Virus record (IMG/VR): IMGVR_UViG_3300045988_046749
DNA length: 46,325 bases
Origin: a virus
Reading direction: 5' to 3' (one strand)
Below the pieces are notes generated by a model, which was not told the origin of the DNA, made no database searches, and was given only the letters and a program-made list of their open reading frames with translations. The first letter of the stretch is position 1. Every line of letters begins with the position of its first letter. A program made the position numbers and the translations under genes. This document shows, one piece after another, positions 5,730 to 46,325 of this stretch.

Positions 5730-6125
5730 ATGGCATTTTCGATAAGCAAATCAATAACTGATAGATACAAGATAAATGGGCTTCTCATCCCTCAGCCAGA
5801 TGAGGACATGCAGTGTAATTTTGAGACCACCTATTCAGAAGGAAGTAACCGAACTCAAAAAGGAGTTGCGCTAATAACTCCACTTTTTACAGTTATGCAA
5901 TATAGCTATAAAGCCACCAATGTGCCAGTTGATGAGAAATCAACTAATCTGGTAAATGCAATTATTAAAGGAAAGCCATTCATTTTACATCACTGGTTAG
6001 CACACAAAAATGAATGGCGTTCAGAAAAGTTTTACGTGGGAAAAATGAATTACAACATAAAACAAGTTGGGGAATACTATTCCGAAATATCATTTAATAT
6101 GCAGGGGGTGAATCCACTTGATTAA
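5730..6125 (+). CDS. Putative distal tail protein (short, Dit-like by position)
   Basis: 131-aa ORF between the tape measure and the large tail fibre gene, with SD GGGGGGTGA. The call rests on position only. Confidence 0.4.
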   Translation: MAFSISKSITDRYKINGLLIPQPDEDMQCNFETTYSEGSNRTQKGVALITPLFTVMQYSYKATNVPVDEKSTNLVNAIIKGKPFILHHWLAHKNEWRSEKFYVGKMNYNIKQVGEYYSEISFNMQGVNPLD

Positions 6126-9100
6126 TGTATCAAACACTTTTAAAGAAAAGTTGCAAGATGGTGAGCAAGTAATTGAAATCGTGGAGATCGCCTTTTCTGA
6201 CGGAACGAAAAAGACACTTGAAAACGAGATTATGATCGGCAACAATGAATTTTCTGATTGTGCGGAGAGCAGCAGCTTCCCGGTCGGCGCTACAGTTTGC
6301 AAAACAATGAAGCTTGAACTGGACAATACAGAGGATCAGTGGAAAGATTATAATTTCTATCAAGCTAAAGTACATGCCTATTTGAAGCTCCAGACTTCCG
6401 TAGCAGAACCAGCCAGTGAATCAATTTGGATGGATGATTTTTACGAGCCAATTCTTGATACTGATGGAAACAGCATAGTTCTGTCCAGAGCCGCGTCGGA
6501 AGACCGATACGAGACGATTGATAAGGGCGTCTATACAATTACCACGCCAGAGCAATACGGTGAAATATTGAGCTTTACGGCGCTTGATGATATGTACAAG
6601 ACAAATGCTAAATATTATAGCGCTTTGACGCTTCCACAGCCGATTATGGCGCTGGTAAGAGACGCTTGCGAGAGTTTGAATATCCCTATGGGGGTTTCAT
6701 CTATGGCGCATGGAAATGTAGTTGTCACAGCGCTCCCTGACAATATGACATTCCGTCAGCTGATCGGATGGGCGGCAATGTTGGAGACAGCAAACGCCAG
6801 AATTGACAATAGAGGGTATTTGCAATTTATAAAATGGAATTTTGGAGCTGTTGAAAACGGCTCCTTAGTTCCAATTAAATTAGAGGATTATGTGAATAGT
6901 CCAACTCTTTCCAGTGGTGATATTGTAATTACTGGAATCAGAGTAAAAAACAAAGAATCAGAATCCCTGTTTGGAACTGCTGGATATGTGCTGGAGTTAG
7001 AAAACAATCTTCTGTCTGACAGTGACCTTGGAACTGTAGCGGCATGGATTGGCGGTAATATGATCGGGGCCAGATTCCGAAATCTGCAAGGGGATCTGAT
7101 TTATAATCCTCTGTTAGAGTTTGGCGACATGGCATATAGCTTTGATCGGAACGGAAATAAATATCTTACACCGATTACTGATGTATCATCTCCGTTAAAT
7201 GGCATTACCACTGTAAAAACACAGGCAGATGATCCTATTCGGAACAGCAGTGCATATATGTCAGCAGCTACAAAAGCACTGGTAGAAGCAAGACAACTTG
7301 TTAAGGACGAGCGCACAGAGCGCGAAAAAGCCGTTGAAAGGCTTAATAATACACTGAAAACTTCTGGTGGTTTATACATGACTGTAGAGCCACAGGATGA
7401 TGGTAGCAATATCTATTATGCACATAATAAGCCTACACTGGAAGAATCTGATATTGTATGGAAGTTTACGGCAGAAGCAATCGGCATTTCCATGGATGGA
7501 GGAAAGACATATCCTTATGGATTAAATATTAATGGAGAGCTTATTGCAAGGCTTCTGTATGCAGAGGGAATCAATGCAAGTTATATTAATGCCGGTGCGT
7601 TAGTTGTTCGTGACGCAAATGGGAAGGTTATCTTCTCAGCCGATATTGATAATAACCAGATTGTTATTGACGGCGCATCTGTGCGAATCGGTGCATCGCC
7701 TTTGGATGGACTGTTAAGCAGCATGCAGGGGCAGATTGATGGGAATATAAACACCTGGACAGGAACCTCAGCGCCTACATTGAGCAATTATCCAGCTAAC
7801 GAATGGCTGGACGACACCGAAATGAGCAAGCATGTCGGAGATATTTACTATGATGGTAATAGCCATGCTTACCGATTTGTAAATGAGGGCAATGGGTATT
7901 ATTGGAAACAGTTGAAAGATACGGACGTTACAAAGGCACTGAAAGACTCTGAAGACGCATTAGCAGCGGCTAAACAGGCGCAGGAAGCGGCAGCTCTTGC
8001 CAAGAACATGACATTGCAGCTAAGCAATGAATACCAGGGCGTTTCTGTTGACTCTGATGGAAATTACGAAACGTTTCCGAGCAATGTGACTACACAAGCC
8101 GTCGTAATGTACGGAACGCAGGATATTACATCTGATTGTAAATTTACAATTATCAAATCAGATAGCGTAACAGGATCCTGGGACAATTCAACTAAGACAT
8201 ATACGGTAACAGCATTATCTGCTGACGATGGATGGGTAGATATTAAGGCAACGTATATCAGTGTTTTATCAGTAGTTAAAAGATTTTCGCTGGCTAAAAT
8301 TTACGCTGGCAAAAATGGTATAAACGGTGTTGACGGGCTCCAGGGACCGAAAGGAGATCAAGGCATACCGGGGCCACAAGGAGAAAAGGGGGAAGCCGGT
8401 CCGCAAGGCCCAAAAGGGGAACAAGGAATTGCCGGAACTCCCGGAGCAGACGGAAAGACCCCATATCTGCATATTAAATATGCTCCTGTCAAAAATCCAA
8501 CATCTTCGCAGCTTACTGAAACCCCAGATGTGTATATTGGTACATATACGGATTTTGAAATAAATGATAGTACGGATCCAAAAAAGTACACATGGGCGCA
8601 GTTTAAAGGAGATCAAGGTGTACAGGGACTGAAAGGCGAAGATGGAAAACCATCTTATACATGGATAAAATACGCCTCTATGCCAAACAGCGAAGATATG
8701 TCGGATAACCCCGATAGTGTTCCATGGATTGATACAGATGGGAATACAATATGTGATACGGCAGGAAATCCAATCTATCTGGAGCCGGAATATGTTGCGT
8801 ATATCGGAATTGCAAACAACAAAGATACGCCAATAGAAAGTGACAATCCAAAAGATTATACATGGACTCGATACAAAGGCGCTGATGGGGAAAACGGTTC
8901 TGATGGCAAGGATGGCATAAACGGAAAAGACGGAAAAACAAGTTATACACACATTGCTTACGCAAACAGTGCTGATGGAAAAACAGATTTCTCTGTGTCG
9001 GACAGTAATCGAAAATATATAGGCATGTATGTGGATTTTTCCGAACAGGACAGCACAAACCCAGATAGTTACGCATGGTCTCTGATCAAAGGTGCTGATG

Positions 9101-10500
9101 GCGCACAAGGTATTCCAGGAAAAGCAGGTGCGGACGGAAAGACACCATATCTCCATATAGCTTATGCGAACAGCGCTGACGGAAAAAATGGATTTGATAT
9201 AGTTGTTAGCTCTGGAAAACAATATATTGGACAGTATACTGATTATACACCAGGTGACAGCACTGACCCGACAAAGTATAGCTGGACGAAGATAAAAGGC
9301 GAACAGGGCGATAAAGGAGAGCAAGGTGTACCTGGTAGGACATATTTTATCGAGCTTTCATCCAATATCCTAAAGCGAGGTCAGAATGATAAGGTTTTAC
9401 CAAGTACAATTACGGCAAAAGCTTATTATCGAGATGGTGACAGCGCTGCAAGAACAGCATATTCTGGTAGATGGTATGTGCAGACTTCCACGGATGGCTC
9501 TACATTTACAAACGCATTGGTTTCAACTGTAAATGAGTCGAGTAAAAGTTATACTGTTAGCTCACTGGATAGAAGCGTTGTGTCTGTTAGATTTATTCTG
9601 TATGCTGCTGGCGGAACTACAAATCAGCTGGATATGCAATCTGTCCCTGTGGTGATAGATGTGGACGCACTTACCCACGAAGAGATATTTAATCTTCTTA
9701 CAAATAATGGTTCCATGAAAGGAATTTATAAAGAGGGCAACCAGTTATATATTTCGTTCACTTATGCAAAAGGCGGAGTATTGAAGCTTGGCGGTCCGAA
9801 TAATGGATATGGCACTTTTGAGGTGTACGACAAAGACGGAAATATTATTTGTAAAATAAATAACGAAGATGGCTTCAAAAACATAAAAGGAAGCGAATGG
9901 GCGCAGATAAAAGAATCTATATTTAGCGCTGGATTTGGAAACATAACTGATGGAATCCTTGATTTATCAGCGCAATATGAAAATAAAAGAAATGTTGTTT
10001 TGCAATCAATAACCGGTGATTTGATTCTTAAAGTAGCACAAAATTTTATGATTGAAGGAATGAAATCACTAACAGGTGGTAATCCAATGATGTTTAACCC
10101 ATCATATTTGTATGTTGGATATTCTTCATCATCCTCCATGCATTATAAAGTGCTTGGGAAAACCGTAAAAGAAGATGAACTGGAAGACCTATACAGAATC
10201 AAAGTAATCTGGGCGAAATACAAAGACGGGTATTTATCTGAACGAGATGAACGATATGGCAAAGAAATGCCAATGTTTATAGCTGAAGACATCGACCGAA
10301 GATTTCCAATCGCTGTTGACCATAATGAAAAAGGCAAAGCTGAGAACTGGAACTATCGTATTATGATTCCTTGTATGTTCGCTATGCTAAAAAATGAGCA
10401 TGAAAAAGTCAAAAATTTACAATCTGAGCTTGATTCCGTGAAAGCAGAATTAAATGAATTAAAGCAACTTATCAAACAACATATTTCAATGGAGGTATAA
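6118..10500 (+). CDS. Tail fibre / tail-associated structural protein with collagen-like repeats and a C-terminal intramolecular chaperone (S74-like) domain
   Basis: 1,460 aa with a TTG start after GGGGGTG. The N-terminal region looks like a phage minor structural/Tal protein. Five G-X-Y runs flank four ~50-75-aa modules. The C-terminus ([52 protein letters not shown]) matches the tail-spike chaperone domain pattern. Confidence 0.85.
   Translation: [1460 protein letters not shown]
8308..9336 (+). repeat. Collagen-like G-X-Y runs alternating with four repeated modules (coding repeat inside the tail fibre)
   Basis: [50 protein letters not shown] followed by (T/S)(P/S)Y(L/T)(H/W)I(K/A)YA...YIG.Y.D....DS..P..Y.W...KG, four times. 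Confidence 0.85.
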
Positions 10501-15745: not shown

Positions 15746-15774
15746 TTGACATTCGGATATTTCGAAGTTATACT
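15746..15774 (+). promoter_or_regulatory. Cro-side early promoter
   Basis: TTGACA (15746-15751), a 17-nt spacer, then TATACT (15769-15774). Operator O2 fills the spacer. Confidence 0.65.
15752..15766. promoter_or_regulatory. Operator O2 (TTCG-N7-CGAA)
   Basis: TTCGGATATTTCGAA, centred 29 bp from O1. Confidence 0.6.
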
Positions 15775-33737: not shown

Positions 33738-33777
33738 AAAATGTGGGGACAAATTTTTCTGCCATGTATGGTAATAT
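33738..33777 (+). promoter_or_regulatory. Late promoter copy B (AAATGTGGGGACAA box + -10 TAATAT)
   Basis: Box at 33738-33752 and TAATAT at 33772-33777. It lies upstream of terS. Confidence 0.65.
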
Positions 33778-33835
33778 AGTATATATCTATGACTATATGC
33801 CATATGTGGCAGATTTTTTGTTTGGAGGTGAGAAC

Positions 33836-34288
33836 GTGGGAAAACAGGTAGGAAGACCACCAATATATAAGACGGTGAACGAAATTGAAGAAAAAATTGA
33901 AACATATTTCAAAGAATGCGAAGGCGAAATATTAAAAGATGATAATGGAAAAACTGTATTGAATAAATTTGGAAATCCGGTGGTTATTAATCGAAAGCCT
34001 CCAACAGTAACTGGTTTAGCTCTTGCATTAGGATTTACAAGTAGATTGGATTTATTAAGATATCAAGGAAAAAAGGAATTTTGTAACACGATAACGCGCG
34101 CGAAGAGTATGGTAGAGCAGTACGCAGAGGAAAGATTGTTTGATCGTGACGGTTCCAATGGTGCTCAGTTTAGCCTTAGAAACAACTTCAAGGGCTGGGA
34201 CGCTGATAAGAAAAATGATGATTTCAGAGACGGAAAGATTACGATTGTGAACAATATTCCGAGACCGGAGAAACAGGATGGAAAGTAA
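33836..34288 (+). CDS. terS: Terminase small subunit
   Basis: GTG start 5 nt after GGAGGTG. Contains GRPPIYKTVNEIEEKIETYF...PPTVTGLALALGFTSRLDLLRY...FSLRNNFKGW. Confidence 0.8.
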   Translation: MGKQVGRPPIYKTVNEIEEKIETYFKECEGEILKDDNGKTVLNKFGNPVVINRKPPTVTGLALALGFTSRLDLLRYQGKKEFCNTITRAKSMVEQYAEERLFDRDGSNGAQFSLRNNFKGWDADKKNDDFRDGKITIVNNIPRPEKQDGK

Positions 34289-41463: not shown

Positions 41464-42027
41464 ATGAGAGACATTAAAGACTTATGCGCAAGAATTGAAG
41501 ACGAGCTGTCCAAAATCGCTGACAGTGGGTTGACTACTGGAAATCTGGAAATGACATACAAACTGATTGATATGTACAAAGATATAAAGAACACACAGTA
41601 CTGGGACAAAAAGGTGGAGTATTACAATACTGTCCTTGATGAGATGCGCAGTGGGTATAACGACAATTACAGCGAACGAGGTCGCAAACATGACAGTATG
41701 GGGAGATACAGCCGCAGTGATGGAAGAATGATGTACCCAGACTATGATCGTGGCAACTCTTACGGCGATGAAAGTCGCGACTACGGAACCGGAAGAGGGT
41801 ACTATAGTCGCTCCGATGGACGAGATGCTTATAGCGACTATATGACACAAAAACAAAGTTATCGATCTGGAAAGTCAGAGGAATGCAAGAGGAAAATGCT
41901 TTCCGCACTAGAAAAACACCTAAACGAACTCGCAACAGAATTGAGCGACATGTCCAAAGACGCAGAGTGCCGGGAAGAGCGTGATCTTGTTAAGAGATAC
42001 GTCGAGAAATTAAGAGATATACTTTGA
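41464..42027 (+). CDS. Protein with helical ends and an R/S/D/Y/G-rich disordered centre
   Basis: 187 aa with repeated YSRSDGR(M/D). SD AGGAGGTG. Confidence 0.6.
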   Translation: MRDIKDLCARIEDELSKIADSGLTTGNLEMTYKLIDMYKDIKNTQYWDKKVEYYNTVLDEMRSGYNDNYSERGRKHDSMGRYSRSDGRMMYPDYDRGNSYGDESRDYGTGRGYYSRSDGRDAYSDYMTQKQSYRSGKSEECKRKMLSALEKHLNELATELSDMSKDAECREERDLVKRYVEKLRDIL

Positions 42028-42033
42028 TTCTTG

Positions 42034-42076
42034 CAAATGTGGGGACAACTTTTTTAAAAGAATGTGATACTATAAT
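42034..42076 (+). promoter_or_regulatory. Late promoter copy C (AAATGTGGGGACAA box + -10 TACTAT/TATAAT)
   Basis: Box at 42034-42048. TACTAT at 42068-42073 overlaps a perfect TATAAT at 42071-42076. Confidence 0.65.
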
Positions 42077-42356
42077 CTTGCAAGGCATGGTGAACCTTGT
42101 AAGACTTGCTGATTAGAAGTTTTTGCTTTCTTTTTCATTTCATGTCCTCCTTTCTTTTGTGAATATGTCCTTAATAGAAACAGATTTGAGCGGAATCTGG
42201 AGGTTGAAAAGCGGGTGCAATTTCCGACATATTCATTAGCCAGTGTGATTGACTGGTGGAACACCTCATCATGAATGAAACAACATCTCCGTGAAAGTCG
42301 GATAGTGGTAGGCATAACACGATAAATACCTTGCTAACCCGGGAATCCGGGTTATG

Positions 42357-42425
42357 TGGAATGTACGCTAGTGGAAAACTGACAGAGTCGCTCTCTGGTC
42401 TCCGGTTCGATTCCGGGCGTTCCGC
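42357..42425 (+). ncRNA. tRNA-like element (acceptor stem + T-arm, no canonical D or anticodon arm)
   Basis: TGGAATG pairs with CGTTCCG (two G-U pairs). The T-arm is TCCGG-TTCGATT-CCGGG. The middle forms a 5-bp stem with a 5-nt loop. Only 68 nt long. Confidence 0.4.
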
Positions 42426-42544
42426 TTTGATTCGGTTAAAATTATGCTGTTTGCTTGCAAGCGGTCTATGATTTGGCTGAATTTATCTCATGAGAAAAGG
42501 TTATTGCTCATCCTGTTGTCTGGTGTCCGGATCAAAAAGCATAA

Positions 42545-42618
42545 TGGAATGTAGCTCAGTTGGAAGAGCGGAGGGCGCATAGTCCTTGACGTCGGTGGTT
42601 CGAGTCCACCCTTTCCGA
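42545..42618 (+). tRNA. tRNA-like gene with CAU anticodon (Met/Ile2-type), non-canonical features
   Basis: Manual cloverleaf: acceptor TGGAATG/CTTTCCG (one mismatch, one G-U), D-arm GCTC-AGTTGGAA-GAGC, anticodon arm GAGGG-CGCATAG-TCCTT (G at position 33), a 6-nt variable loop, and T-arm GGTGG-TTCGAGT-CCACC. Confidence 0.5.
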
Positions 42619-42695
42619 TTACCCTGCCAGTGGTCTAACTGGCTTAATCCAATACCTGCGGCGGCAGGTCAATAAACACGACCAGGAGGATATAT

Positions 42696-43328
42696 ATGCA
42701 GAAACTTATTGACACATTAAAATCATTTGGAATCGAAATCCCGGAGGACAAACAGGCAGATGTTAAGAAGGCACTCTCTGAGCATTACAAAAATGCAAAG
42801 GAAGTAGCAAAAACTCTGTCGAAAGTCGAGGGTGAACGTGATAGCTGGAAAGTACGTGCTGAGACAGCAGAAGAAACTTTGAAAGGCTTTGACGGTATCG
42901 ACCCGGCAAACATTCAGACAGAGCTTGCTGGATGGAAGAAAAAAGCCGAGGATGCAGAGAAAGAATTTAATGCAAAAATCTACGACCGTGATTTCTCAGA
43001 TGCTCTGAAAGCAGCGCTCGATGATGTTAAATTTTCCAGTGAAGCGGCTAAGAGGTCTGTTATGGCAGACATTAAAGAAGCAGGTCTTAAGCTGAAAGAC
43101 GGTAAAATCCTTGGGCTGAACGATCTGATCGAGCAGATGAAACAGTCTGACGCATCCGCTTTCGTGGATGAATCTCAGCAGCAGGCTCAGCAGAATCAGG
43201 CAAGATTTACTACTCACGTTGGACAGCAGCAGACACCGGGAAGCATGACGAAGAAAGATATTGAAGCAATCAAAGACCCGTCCGAGAGACAGGCTGCAAT
43301 TGCTCAGAATATCCAGTTATTCCAGTGA
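42696..43328 (+). CDS. Scaffolding protein (GP20-like)
   Basis: 210 aa, helical and charged, with a Q-rich tail. Immediately upstream of the major capsid gene. SD AGGAGGA. Confidence 0.8.
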   Translation: MQKLIDTLKSFGIEIPEDKQADVKKALSEHYKNAKEVAKTLSKVEGERDSWKVRAETAEETLKGFDGIDPANIQTELAGWKKKAEDAEKEFNAKIYDRDFSDALKAALDDVKFSSEAAKRSVMADIKEAGLKLKDGKILGLNDLIEQMKQSDASAFVDESQQQAQQNQARFTTHVGQQQTPGSMTKKDIEAIKDPSERQAAIAQNIQLFQ

Positions 43329-43363: not shown

Positions 43364-43406
43364 CTAACCCAATACCTTAATAATTATGGGTAGAAAGGAT
43401 TTTTTT

Positions 43407-44573
43407 ATGCCAGCAAAAACAAATCTTATTATGACTAATGATATCCAGGTCACAGCACGTGAGATTGACTTTGTAACCAGATTCGAAAGAAACTGGCAGC
43501 ACTTACGTGACATTCTGGGTATCATGAGACCTATCAAAAAACAGCCGGGTGCTGTACTGAAATCTAAGTACGCAGAGGGTACTTTACAGAGTGGACTTGT
43601 CGGTGAGGGTGAGGAAATTCCTTACAGCAAGTTCACTGTAAAAGAAAAGAACTATGCGGAAATGACTATCGAGAAGTACGCAAAGGCTGTATCTATCGAA
43701 GCAATCAAGGATCATGGTTATGAGAACGCTGTTCAGATGACCGATGATGAATTCCTTTTCCAGCTTCAGACTGATGTTACCAGCAGATTCTATGACTATC
43801 TGAAAACCGGTACACTTACTTCCACAGAAACCACATTCCAGATGGCTCTGGCAATGGCCAAAGGTCGTGTTGAGAACAAATTCAAACAAATACACAGAAA
43901 TGTGACTGGCGTTGTTGGATTTGTGAACATTCTGGACGTATATGAATACCTTGGAGCAGCTGAAATCACCATTCAAAACCAGTTCGGCTTCCAGTATATG
44001 AAAGACTTCATGGGATTCAATACTATCTTCCTGCTATCTGACAGTGAGATTCCAAGAGGACAGGTTATCGCTACCCCTGTCGAGAACATCGTGCTGTACT
44101 ATGTAGATCCGAATGAATCTGACTTTGCAAGAGCAGGACTTGTATATACTGTTTCTGGCGAGACAAACCTGATTGGATTCCACACTCAGGGCAACTACCA
44201 CACAGCAGTGTCCGAAGCGTTCGCAGTAATGGGACTTACTCTTTTTGCAGAGTACATTGACGCAATCGCAGTAATTACCATTGACGAGACACCAACGCTT
44301 GGAACTCTGACAGTAACATCTGCGGCAGGGACAGCAAGTGGCGACACAAAAATCACTGTAAATCCAGCTAAAGAAAATGCCAACAACGTATATAAATACA
44401 AAGTTGCAGCGGATGCAGTAACTGTCGGATACGGACAGAATCTCAGAAACTGGAGCACTTGGGATGGAAAAGCCGATATCACAGCGGCAACCGGACAGAA
44501 GATCACAGTGGTTGAGTGCGATGGAACATACAAGGCGCTGAATGCCGGAAGTGCAAGCGTAACAGCAAAATGA
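43407..44573 (+). CDS. Major capsid protein with C-terminal Ig-like domain
   Basis: 388 aa from ATG 43407. N-terminal REIDFVTRFERNWQHLRDILGIMRPIKK. The C-terminal ~90 aa are Ig-like (TLTVTSAAGTASGDTKITV...ASVTAK). Confidence 0.85.
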   Translation: MPAKTNLIMTNDIQVTAREIDFVTRFERNWQHLRDILGIMRPIKKQPGAVLKSKYAEGTLQSGLVGEGEEIPYSKFTVKEKNYAEMTIEKYAKAVSIEAIKDHGYENAVQMTDDEFLFQLQTDVTSRFYDYLKTGTLTSTETTFQMALAMAKGRVENKFKQIHRNVTGVVGFVNILDVYEYLGAAEITIQNQFGFQYMKDFMGFNTIFLLSDSEIPRGQVIATPVENIVLYYVDPNESDFARAGLVYTVSGETNLIGFHTQGNYHTAVSEAFAVMGLTLFAEYIDAIAVITIDETPTLGTLTVTSAAGTASGDTKITVNPAKENANNVYKYKVAADAVTVGYGQNLRNWSTWDGKADITAATGQKITVVECDGTYKALNAGSASVTAK

Positions 44574-45942: not shown

Positions 45943-46325
45943 ATGTATTCATCTAAAATTACACTTTTCAACTATTACGAAAGTGCCACAACTGGAGATG
46001 CGTACTGGTATCCTCATGTTTTATCCGGCGTTGACCTCATTACGGACAAGGGAGCAATACTCAAGAAGTACGGACCGGACGCAACAGACAATGCGCAGTT
46101 GCACGTCCGATATACCGTCCAGAACGGCGATATAACCATTGCTGATAAGGATGGAAAGATTCTCCCGTGGATACCGCCCAAAGAATGGAAAGGGCAGATT
46201 AACAACGCTTTGGAAGACACTATCACATTCTCGGACGAATCATTCTTCTGGGAGGGTGAGTGGACTGGCAGAACGGTAACTGATGGTGATTATCGGAATG
46301 GATTCTATCAGTACATGAACGAGAA
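45943..46325 (+). CDS. 5' part of the head-tail joining protein that continues at 1..134 through the circular junction
   Basis: ATG after AAGGAGAGGG, with an open frame to the window end. The 46271-46325 overlap is in phase with 1-55. Confidence 0.75.
   Translation, partial: MYSSKITLFNYYESATTGDAYWYPHVLSGVDLITDKGAILKKYGPDATDNAQLHVRYTVQNGDITIADKDGKILPWIPPKEWKGQINNALEDTITFSDESFFWEGEWTGRTVTDGDYRNGFYQYMNE
46271..46325. repeat. Terminal overlap identical to 1..55
   Basis: Exact 55/55 identity. Confidence 0.97.

Follow-up and report, generated by a model that had tools for sequence, protein, structure and literature searches.

What does a phage encode, if not protein, in the roughly 670 bases that lie ahead of its capsid-assembly genes? 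We address this question for a viral DNA stretch of 46,325 nucleotides (IMG/VR record IMGVR_UViG_3300045988_046749; hereafter the window), in which a preliminary description, made by reading the letters, had noticed an untranslated, densely structured gap and suspected a single large structured RNA with two tRNA-like modules. Its first observation stands. Read from the window sequence, the gap is non-coding and densely folded: the longest open reading frame on the plus strand has at most 46 amino acids, the 619-nt leader folded as a whole has a z-score of -3.1 against shuffled sequences (0 of 20 shuffles fold as well), and all the structures that had been listed are present where they had been placed. 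The suspicion of a single large RNA does not stand, and the gap is instead a mosaic, a chain of small folded RNAs (Table 1), each of which is exchangeable separately. It is best explained as the leader of a head-morphogenesis operon, in which the scaffold gene (identified by PHROGs and Pfam matches) is followed by the major capsid gene, and as a slot for small non-coding RNAs made late in infection.

Table 1. Elements of the leader ahead of the scaffold gene, in order along the plus strand of the window.
Element	Position	Strand	Evidence or remark
Late-promoter-like motif AAATGTGGGGACAA-N21-TATAAT	42035-42076	+	Second genome copy at 33739-33780
9-bp stem-loop at or near the transcript 5' end	42077-42103	+	-9.6 kcal/mol, z = -2.6
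CCUCCUUUCUU box, anti-Shine-Dalgarno-like	42146-42156	+	CCUCC box kept upstream of RAGATH-21
RAGATH-21 RNA (RF03097), full length	42160-42235	+	91.4 bits, E = 7e-17
6-bp hairpin directly 3' of RAGATH-21	42239-42257	+	-7.7 kcal/mol, z = -3.5
Conserved pre-tRNA element with a terminal 8-bp hairpin (42335-42354)	42305-42356	+	
Module 1, tRNA-shaped, non-decoding	42357-42425	+	Covarying family of 19 sequences
Structured spacer between cassettes, long hairpin and 3' domain	42426-42544	+	
Atypical tRNA(CAU)	42545-42618	+	ARAGORN tRNA-Met(CAT); Rfam tRNA 38.7 bits
Two-hairpin 5' UTR element	42619-42683	+	Hairpins 42626-42643 and 42654-42669
Ribosome-binding site AGGAGGAU and ATG of the scaffold gene (PF06810)	42684-42698	+	Direct reading

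The IMG/VR viral contig collection holds at least 507 related stretches, and across 173 related contigs the gap varies from 335 to 1429 nt while its flanks stay constant. Within it, a fixed frame surrounds a variable slot. The 5' part of the frame consists of the promoter-like motif, the 5' hairpin, the CCUCCUUUCUU box and either RAGATH-21 or a 51-nt tRNA-like substitute; the 3' part runs from the pre-tRNA hairpin element, across the slot, to the two-hairpin 5' UTR and the scaffold ribosome-binding site (RBS). The slot contains one to several tRNAs or tRNA look-alikes or, in a few relatives, a ROOL or skipping-rope RNA (the latter in one relative), and in two relatives GP20-b replaces the two-hairpin UTR. 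In this phage, the slot cassettes are the non-decoding module 1, the structured spacer and a tRNA(CAU) whose anticodon loop is non-canonical. ARAGORN calls zero to three tRNAs per gap, of at least 10 anticodon types, and the slots that it leaves empty contain tRNA look-alikes. Among relatives with 97-99% identity in the scaffold protein, individual segments have been gained or lost independently of one another, and positions 42366-42541 are wholly absent from the commonest relatives. Many cassettes of the relatives are canonical tRNAs (Tyr, Asn, Ile-UAU, Thr, Val and Ser; 50-76 bits) that are likely to decode, and the slot therefore has a part in ordinary tRNA supply as well.

The frame itself is well conserved. 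Its promoter-like motif occurs twice in the 46-kb genome (two matches were reached in 0 of 100 shuffles), and the second copy fronts the probable terminase small-subunit gene. The two copies do no more than suggest a late-promoter role. The motif is non-standard and was not recovered by a sigma-70 promoter scan; apart from the copies here and at 33739, no third one was found, the match at 15764 having the -10-like part only. The place directly after the -10 box, taken here by the 9-bp hairpin noticed earlier, is occupied by a hairpin in relatives with another type of promoter as well. The element ahead of the first cassette is nearly invariant across 63 distinct sequence versions, and its terminal 8-bp hairpin, 2-3 nt before the first tRNA-shaped module, folds at -12.9 kcal/mol (z = -4.0, matched by 0 of 200 shuffles) and covaries in the distant phage L192 (AACCGGcagaaGCCGGUU). 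On the other side of the slot, the 5' UTR element opens with UUACC right past the discriminator base, contains an invariant AAUCCA and is kept in all relatives with a UTR of the same type. Compensatory changes affect 5 of its pairs among 16 diverse sequences, and the hairpins previously noted at 42626-42668 prove to be two 6-bp hairpins that both covary.

The two tRNA-shaped modules both begin with TGGAATGTA and end in a GGTTCGA(T/G)TCC T-arm with a complementary acceptor strand, as had been recognized by eye. The second was already read as a cloverleaf with a CAU anticodon, G33 and a 6-nt variable loop; ARAGORN and Rfam agree, the latter with a score above its cut-off of 29 bits. It carries a U1-G72 pair and a U6-U67 mismatch, and CCA is not encoded. 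Its anticodon loop, CGCAUAG, combines G33 with A37, and C32 and G38 can pair. The loop departs from the canonical form (U33, purine at 37) in that position 33 is G or A throughout the family and never U. This loop, C-[G/A]-CAU-A-G, recurs on several anticodon-stem sequences, some of which differ by compensatory changes, and on two tRNA bodies.

Module 1 is called by neither ARAGORN nor the Rfam tRNA model. It has a 7-bp acceptor stem, a weak D arm, a 5-bp stem with a 5-nt loop (UCGCU), a 3-nt variable region and a canonical T arm (5-bp stem, UUCGAUU loop). The 5-nt loop and 3-nt variable region set it apart from decoding tRNAs, in which the anticodon loop has 7 nt and the variable loop 4-5 nt, and its acceptor/T stack and D-like arm, with compensatory changes, make it a tRNA-like structure. 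The earlier statement that it cannot decode is thus upheld, but not the statement that it lacks a D arm, since the D stem is defective and still present. Among 19 distinct sequences of the family, 96.5% of cells pair, 8 pairs have changed on both sides, and the observed score was reached by 0 of 500 shuffles. Because the family is conserved with compensatory changes, 'pseudo-tRNA', the name considered at first, is too weak. The spacer, which moves together with module 1 as a single cassette, has compensatory changes in 13 of its 36 predicted pairs among 12 distinct homologues. A consensus scan for intrinsic terminators in the gap returned weak sites only, with proper U tracts absent, and the candidate at 42446-42465 is the tip of the covarying spacer hairpin.

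Across the relatives, it is the decoding end of these cassettes that varies. In 25 cassettes that share one tRNA body, the differences per column amount to 0.48 in the anticodon arm and 0.16 elsewhere, and in some of them the arm is shortened by deletions. U33 is missing from 75 of 176 tRNA calls. At least one acceptor stem plus T arm is present in each of the 145 distinct leaders analysed, a combination that the same test also detects in RAGATH-21. Together, the variability of the anticodon arm, the missing U33 and the universal acceptor stem and T arm speak for a function independent of decoding. UUAC(C), or a sequence close to it, comes after the discriminator base at the end of nearly every cassette.

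Among the roles that the preliminary description had suggested for the tRNA-like pieces, that of RNase P/Z processing signals fits these comparative data best. On balance, we think it probable from the sequences that the leader is transcribed late and that its tRNA-shaped modules are excised by RNase P and RNase Z, maturing the scaffold-capsid mRNA. The late promoter would transcribe the entire leader; RNase P would cut at the 5' end of each tRNA-shaped module, and RNase Z past each discriminator base, a position predicted because CCA is not encoded and the trailer begins with UUA. The final cut, past A42618, would create the 5' end of the mature scaffold-capsid mRNA, shielded by the two hairpins, and the same cuts would detach this mRNA from an upstream leader whose anti-Shine-Dalgarno box may mask the scaffold RBS. 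The prerequisites for both enzymes (an acceptor/T-arm stack, no encoded CCA and a UUA trailer) are present. A processing role does not explain why a leader may hold several cassettes or ROOL, nor the constancy of the odd C-R-CAU-A-G loop.

The locus could also be read as an ordinary phage tRNA island, with one supplementary tRNA, a decaying pseudo-tRNA (module 1) and functionless spacer. Such islands are common in phages, the slots of relatives do contain canonical tRNAs, and some cassettes resemble deletion derivatives of tRNA-Ile(UAU). We nevertheless consider this unlikely, since neutral decay would not be expected to yield a covarying spacer and UTR, loops that are kept (the 5-nt loop of the module 1 family with its doubly changed pairs, and the purine-33 loop on several different stem sequences) or changes that gather in the anticodon arm of a nearly constant body.

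This focus of change on the anticodon arm fits a further reading, compatible with processing, in which the tRNA(CAU) and the look-alikes are counter-defence RNAs, either tRNAs whose altered anticodon loops resist the anticodon nucleases of the host or decoys that soak up such nucleases. Positions 33 and 38, where changes occur, fall on or next to sites that nucleases are known to cut, and the set of types present (Tyr, Asn, Thr, Met, Ile) overlaps with that of known targets. In published work, changes in the anticodon loops of phage tRNAs are predicted to block VapC, PrrC and colicins (van den Berg et al., 2023; PMC10264068), and infection is rescued by phage tRNAs from the effectors of retrons and PARIS (PMC11555353, PMC12409363). 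But no defence nuclease of Lachnospiraceae hosts is known to target these tRNAs, and neither the constant location within the scaffold leader nor the UUACC junction or the anti-Shine-Dalgarno box would be explained. We regard this role, too, as rather unlikely.

The processing model gives a place to the anti-Shine-Dalgarno box, CCUCCUUUCUU, whose sequence also forms the 3' tail of 16S rRNA in Bacillota. A CCUCC box, mostly in this form, lies at most 45 nt upstream of RAGATH-21 or its small substitute in 145 of 153 distinct leaders; on the plus strand of the whole window CCTCC occurs 12 times, compared with 49 GGAGG. Both the minimum free energy and the centroid folds close the leader by a 10-bp helix, AUGUCCUCCU:AGGAGGAUAU, in which the box pairs with the RBS of the scaffold gene. 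The pairing shows no covariation among relatives because both sequences are invariant, and inspection of the flanks of box and RBS revealed no co-variation between leader families. GGAGG within RAGATH-21 could be an alternative partner of the box.

RAGATH-21 is an orphan motif of Breaker and Weinberg from gut and phage sequences, and no paper in the library searched names it. The perfect 10-bp long-range pairing first seen between 42160-42169 and 42226-42235 is its closing stem, P1. The RNA covers model positions 1-76 of 76, well above the gathering score of 70.3 bits, with P1, a variable P2 hairpin, a GAAA-capped P3 and a P4 with the 7-nt loop UGCAAUU. The conserved junction CCUUAAUAGAAAC is present, every conserved nucleotide is kept, and the model alignment contains no non-standard pair in any of the four helices. 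Related loci yielded 52 distinct RAGATH-21 sequences with 27 distinct P1 strands, and pairing is kept in all 27. The RNA here is thus a full member of RF03097 with no difference in the RNA itself. What is newly seen is its context, as the first module of a scaffold-gene leader followed by tRNA cassettes. This context extends to other species, as a scaffold homologue (identity down to 27%) lies about 100-600 nt downstream in 13 of 13 RAGATH-21 loci from other-species genomes with enough flanking DNA. The hairpin proposed at 42240-42256 is real and has 6 bp, and in distant relatives a hairpin of unrelated sequence can be seen by eye 2-5 nt past RAGATH-21.

In about 20 distinct leaders, RAGATH-21 is replaced in place by the 51-nt element, which has in common with it P1 and the motif C[C/U]UUAAU[A/G]GAAA. 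The T arm of this substitute fits the tRNA consensus GGUUCGAAUCC, and the Rfam tRNA model aligns to it without the anticodon arm (19.6 bits, E = 0.24). RAGATH-21 has no match to the Rfam tRNA model, and the substitute none to the RAGATH-21 model; the case for homology of the two is based on their position, their P1 stem and a 13-nt motif picked post hoc. A tRNA-Tyr-like cassette of this same system has the T-loop UGCAACU and a D loop with AG for GG, and the same two changes occur in RAGATH-21. P1 would stack directly on a short hairpin with a T-loop-like 7-nt loop to give 13 stacked pairs; the tRNA counterpart has 12. In leaders without tRNAs, A-UUACC comes after RAGATH-21 P1. RAGATH-21 looks like a tRNA-derived module and, of all members of the array, is probably the oldest and the most constant.

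RAGATH-21 might alternatively be a cis-regulator of the late operon, either a ligand or protein switch or a put-like antitermination RNA, with the tRNAs as passengers. It always lies on the sense strand, about 60-85 nt past the promoter-like motif and upstream of the scaffold gene, next to the anti-Shine-Dalgarno box, and its junction nucleotides are highly conserved in the manner of a riboswitch. The RBS may lie up to about 1.2 kb away, across processed tRNAs, which speaks against a direct effect on translation. RAGATH-21 is not followed by a terminator or an expression platform, its place can be taken by a minimal tRNA-like element, and in the relative L037 it is absent. We therefore judge such a role improbable. 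The processing model can be extended to a joint scheme that we put forward only as a long shot. In this processing-activated switch, the box would mask the RBS across a loop of tRNA-shaped modules until RNase P/Z cuts freed the mRNA and the modules; RAGATH-21 would be tRNA-derived, its elbow altered (A18-G55 type); look-alikes that have a 5-nt loop or purine 33 would be kept because they act after release as nuclease-resistant tRNAs or decoys; and ROOL would share the launch pad.

A single ornate RNA of 670 nt (ROOL, GOLLD or a new class) is by now largely refuted, and we give it very little credence. The fold of the whole leader and the structure in nearly every segment are what such an RNA would show. 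But the segments come and go independently, one of them missing from the commonest relatives; the supported helices are all local to a module; and the sole long-range pairing, between box and RBS, lacks covariation. Covariance-model searches with Rfam returned only RAGATH-21 and one tRNA above threshold across the gap. Between 41500 and 43200, neither ROOL (RF03087) nor GOLLD is matched even at E <= 10, and nowhere in the whole 46-kb window does either reach the gathering score. The only tmRNA-model match has 10.5 bits against a cut-off of 47 (E = 0.13) and covers the T arm of module 1 only, and ARAGORN finds no tmRNA; a tag reading frame is absent. Weak Rfam matches in the gap (Pinc, DGCR5, a plastid UTR, the tmRNA T arm) are attributed to chance. 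The lead to ROOL was nevertheless partly right, since this RNA, absent from the window, occupies the same slot in four sister phages (371-386 bits), directly past a tRNA-Met.

That the gap encodes small proteins, on whichever strand, is scarcely credible: the complement of the CCUCC box is a perfect minus-strand RBS followed by the ATG of a 22-aa open reading frame (MKKKAKTSNQQVLQGSPCLARL), but the corresponding peptides in relatives are unrelated (1 to about 130 aa) or absent, with 32 leaders lacking a start codon, and the plus-strand frames overlap the tRNA-shaped modules and are lost in mosaic exchanges. The antisense frame noted at 42070-42315 exists (81 aa), and its peptides are likewise unrelated or absent in relatives.

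Parts of this arrangement have counterparts elsewhere. As in the Bacillota phage tRNA islands with ROOL or GOLLD, tRNAs are associated here with an orphan structured RNA, and GOLLD env-38 also lies downstream of a Met-tRNA (PMC12286853); the window, however, has neither ROOL nor GOLLD, and its island is tiny, with two cassettes. Unlike free-standing tRNA clusters, the island lies within the 5' leader of the scaffold-capsid mRNA. The changes are concentrated in the anticodon loop, as in the phage tRNAs analysed by van den Berg et al. (2023; PMC10264068), but here near-universal rules are broken (a purine for U33, 5-nt loops), so that some cassettes cannot decode at all. Module 1 and the 51-nt substitute resemble armless or minimal tRNAs and the tRNA-like domain of tmRNA in keeping the acceptor, T arm and a D-like element without a working, or any, anticodon arm, but they are elements of a phage leader, neither tmRNA nor organellar decoders. 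tRNA-mRNA co-transcripts and tRNA-shaped processing signals are known from the E. coli thrU-tyrU-glyT-thrT-tufB operon, mitochondrial tRNA punctuation and the mascRNA of MALAT1. As in these co-transcripts, tRNA-shaped elements lie upstream, on the same strand, of a highly expressed protein gene; since RNase P and RNase Z need no more than an acceptor stem and T arm, the anticodon arm can change or degenerate freely, which matches what is seen in the cassettes here. The array here differs in being hypervariable between close relatives and in including RAGATH-21 and the anti-Shine-Dalgarno box, and its processing is predicted.

Three conserved orphan phage RNAs, RAGATH-21, ROOL and skipping-rope, thus occupy one predicted transcription unit, the scaffold-capsid leader, which gives RAGATH-21 and ROOL a testable context. 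Conserved tRNA shapes that do not decode, together with a hot spot of change in the anticodon arm, bear on the question of why phages carry tRNAs, and RAGATH-21, if it is tRNA-derived, would be a further case of the tRNA scaffold reused for other jobs. The hosts of the phage group belong to the Lachnospiraceae, among them the cultured isolates Enterocloster hominis CLA-SR-H021 and Blautia sp. MSJ-19, which carry related prophages, and the group is very common in human gut samples.

Comparison with relatives confirmed the observation of a structured, tRNA-bearing gap ahead of the head scaffolding gene and showed the composition of this leader to be modular. The gap (42028-42695) is non-coding (longest plus-strand ORF at most 46 aa), and the hairpins and pairings listed in the preliminary description all fold as proposed, most of them beating shuffled sequences. 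In IMG/VR at least 507 relatives of the scaffold protein were confirmed, the best 80 with 97–99% identity. With both flanking genes as anchors, gaps of 335 to 1429 nt were extracted from 173 contigs and reduced to 119 distinct sequences. BLAST matches cover the window's gap unevenly (see table), and a block map of the gaps gives a constant frame enclosing a variable slot. The commonest relatives (476-nt gap) join 42365 directly to 42542; module 1 and the spacer therefore form one optional cassette, bordered by TGGAATGTA, the start common to both tRNA-like modules. Each gap holds 0–3 tRNAs by ARAGORN, with Met, Tyr, Asn, Ile(UAU), Val, Thr, Gln, Ser, Leu and Cys types in the slot; slots without a call hold tRNA look-alikes, either of the module 1 class or of a class with a palindromic CUAUAG hairpin.

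Coordinates of leader elements and neighbouring genes in the window, and of ROOL in related loci (L handles); coverage is out of 201 loci
Feature	Coordinates	Match or setting	BLAST coverage
ORF upstream of gap	41464-42027	phrog_28802	
RAGATH-21, full length	42160-42235	RF03097; 91.4 bits vs gathering score 70.3	about 165
Leader segment	42308-42360		about 178
Module 1	42357-42425		about 65-70
Spacer	42426-42544		about 50-55
tRNA(CAU)	42545-42618	Rfam tRNA, 38.7 bits	
Leader segment	42608-42695		about 187
Head scaffolding gene, downstream of gap	42696-43328	PF06810 (formerly Phage_GP20); phrog_194	
Major head protein gene, after scaffold gene	43386-44573		
ROOL	L052:2282-2843	sister phage, scaffold-leader slot	
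ROOL	L106:4213-4771	sister phage, scaffold-leader slot	
ROOL	L119:7044-7602 (-)	sister phage, scaffold-leader slot	
ROOL	L170:8633-9192 (-)	sister phage, scaffold-leader slot	

In the longest gaps there is a full-length ROOL RNA (371–386 bits), directly 3′ of a canonical tRNA-Met(CAU) whose 3′ end it overlaps by ~7 nt, with one or two tRNA-Ser genes downstream. Two further orphan Rfam motifs occur in the scaffold leader of relatives: skipping-rope RNA lies in one slot between two tRNA cassettes (L213:1190-1273 (-)), and GP20-b replaces the two-hairpin 5′ UTR before the scaffold gene in two (L202:4456-4520 (-), L215:5100-5163 (-)).

Two Rfam families reach gathering score in the window, the tRNA and RAGATH-21. 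The perfect 10-bp long-range pairing described earlier is the P1 stem of the catalogued RAGATH-21, for which our literature search found no paper using the name. Genomes of different species gave 14 RAGATH-21 matches, and a scaffold homologue (identity down to 27%) lies about 100–600 nt downstream in 13/13 with enough flank; RAGATH-21 therefore belongs to the scaffold-gene leader. Distant phages whose flanks do not match the window keep the order hairpin, U-rich stretch, CCUCC box, RAGATH-21, optional tRNAs, UTR element, RBS and scaffold gene. Four leaders are without any tRNA. In two of them (L171 and L205) A-UUACC and the two hairpins come immediately after RAGATH-21, and in the other two (L109 and L202) a GP20-b type UTR comes after it.

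RAGATH-21 looks tRNA-derived. As drawn in Rfam, its 3-bp P4, capped by the 7-nt loop UGCAAUU, runs gapless into the 3′ strand of the 10-bp P1, a 13-bp stack compared with 12 in tRNA. About 20 distinct leaders carry in its place, at the same position, a 51-nt element (GUGCGCACG-CUUUAAUGGAAAG-UUAAA-ACAGGUUCGAAUCCUGU-CGUGCGUA) that has in common with RAGATH-21 its type of P1 sequence as well as the motif C[C/U]UUAAU[A/G]GAAA. The T arm of this element agrees with the tRNA consensus, and the element aligns to the Rfam tRNA model, below threshold (19.6 bits, E = 0.24), as a tRNA that has no anticodon arm. A tRNA-Tyr-like cassette (L110:1884-1965; also L214) has the T-loop UGCAACU and AG in place of GG in its D loop, and RAGATH-21 shares both changes, a hint of an alternative tRNA elbow. 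Counting against a tRNA origin, neither the tRNA nor the RAGATH-21 covariance model recognised the other RNA. A generic acceptor-stem-plus-T-arm search picked up RAGATH-21 itself and found at least one such element in 145/145 distinct leaders analysed.

The leader modules are each structured on their own. Module 1 fits a cloverleaf in 19 distinct relatives, with 96.5% of cells paired (< 50% in slid controls), 8 pairs altered on both sides and 0/500 shuffles matching the observed score. As had been proposed, it cannot decode, because its "anticodon" stem bears a 5-nt loop (UCGCN) and its variable region is 3 nt; the D-arm reported as missing is, in the window's copy, a D stem that contains a bulge and a C-A mismatch, hence the earlier reading. 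The spacer has 13 compensatory pairs over 12 homologues, and the 5′ UTR element (42619-42683) has 5 in its two hairpins, with UUACC and AAUCCA invariant. Just ahead of the tRNA, 42305-42356 shows almost no variation across 63 versions. The second module is indeed a tRNA with a CAU anticodon, the only one called by ARAGORN in the window and a gathering-score match in Rfam.

One tRNA body (UGGAAUG acceptor, GCUCAG...GAGC D arm, GGUUCGAnUCC T arm) is common to 25 distinct cassettes, some with truncated anticodon arms and 5-nt loops; differences per column are nearly threefold higher in the anticodon arm (0.48 vs 0.16 elsewhere). This pattern indicates that the acceptor, D and T arms, which make up the body, are under selection irrespective of decoding ability. 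A purine at 33 with a Watson-Crick-capable 32/38 pair occurs in 75 of 176 ARAGORN calls, the majority with the loop C-[G/A]-CAU-A-G, like the window's tRNA. Because this loop is found on several anticodon-stem sequences (some with compensatory differences) and two tRNA bodies, it is maintained rather than drifting. Separately, 84–90-nt tRNAs of class II shape, the form with a long variable arm known from Ser, Leu and Tyr tRNAs, were seen with the glutamine anticodon UUG in L003, L062, L079, L082, L142 and L110:1970-2058; since Ser and Leu synthetases do not recognise the anticodon, CAA codons could be translated by these tRNAs with a different amino acid.

A CCUCC box lies just 5′ of RAGATH-21 or its substitute in 145/153 distinct leaders; its commonest form, CCUCCUUUCUU, is identical to the 3′-terminal sequence of Bacillota 16S rRNA. 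The whole-genome plus strand has 12 CCTCC vs 49 GGAGG. As a minus-strand RBS the complement is a perfect match, but in relatives it is followed by unrelated or very short ORFs or by none, so the box is a plus-strand feature. In the MFE and centroid folds, AUGUCCUCCU (42141-42150) pairs with AGGAGGAUAU (42684-42693), a predicted pairing, without covariation, that would close the whole array. The motif AAATGTGGGGACAA-N21-TATAaT, not found by a standard promoter scan, has two genome copies, in the leader and at 33739 before the probable terminase small-subunit gene, each followed by a hairpin. Relatives have other upstream sequence, likewise ending in TATAAT and a hairpin, and late transcription of the leader is plausible. 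The second copy (33739-33836; AAATGTGGGGACAA-N21-TATAGT, then a long hairpin and U-run) is a candidate late operon start with an attenuator-like structure. The leader of six distant phages (L086, L105, L109, L110, L134, L204) starts with the direct repeat GCCAG(T/A)CGCCAG(T/A)CGCAGAGCCA, about 60–120 nt upstream of RAGATH-21, right behind a small zinc-ribbon-like ORF (...LPVFCPKCK...) and followed by a long hairpin and U-run; it may serve this RNA array as another kind of promoter or regulator site.

We propose that the leader would be made as a late transcript, from which RNase P and RNase Z would release the tRNA-shaped modules; these have no encoded CCA and trailers beginning UUA, the RNase Z route in Bacillus. 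A cut after A42618 would give the scaffold-capsid mRNA two protective 5′ hairpins and detach it from the anti-SD-bearing leader. Precedents include the E. coli tRNA-tufB operon, mitochondrial tRNA punctuation and MALAT1 mascRNA. As far as sequence comparison reaches, it supports the earlier tRNA-like reading and processing-signal idea. Processing leaves the conserved purine-33 loop and the presence of ROOL in the slot unexplained; for these the main alternative, compatible with processing, is a role after release, e.g. as the nuclease-resistant tRNAs or decoys proposed for other phages (PMC10264068, PMC11555353, PMC12409363). A single large RNA or ROOL in this window is not supported, the gap being a mosaic and a permissive covariance-model scan of 41500-43200 (E ≤ 10) giving no ROOL or GOLLD match and, for tmRNA, a weak alignment to the module 1 T arm only. 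The leader is of the same kind as phage tRNA islands carrying orphan RNAs, here built into a capsid-operon leader, and provides a defined, testable context for RAGATH-21 and ROOL as well as conserved tRNA look-alikes incapable of decoding.

The window is a complete circular (or circularly permuted) phage genome of 46,270 bp, since bases 1–55 are repeated exactly at 46271–46325. Its close relatives come from human faecal viromes, and those in bacterial genomes are Lachnospiraceae prophages (Enterocloster hominis, Blautia sp. MSJ-19, Faecalimonas, Mediterraneibacter and Eisenbergiella among them). At its C terminus the major head protein (43386-44570) has a domain, residues 314–394, with a match to PF18316, the C-terminal domain of S-layer SbsC (E = 5e-16); this is a possible capsid decoration or Ig-like domain. 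A 1460-aa ORF (6118-10500), which we take to be a tail fibre, contains tandem collagen-like 9-nt periodic repeats (GGN-rich) at 8323-9331.
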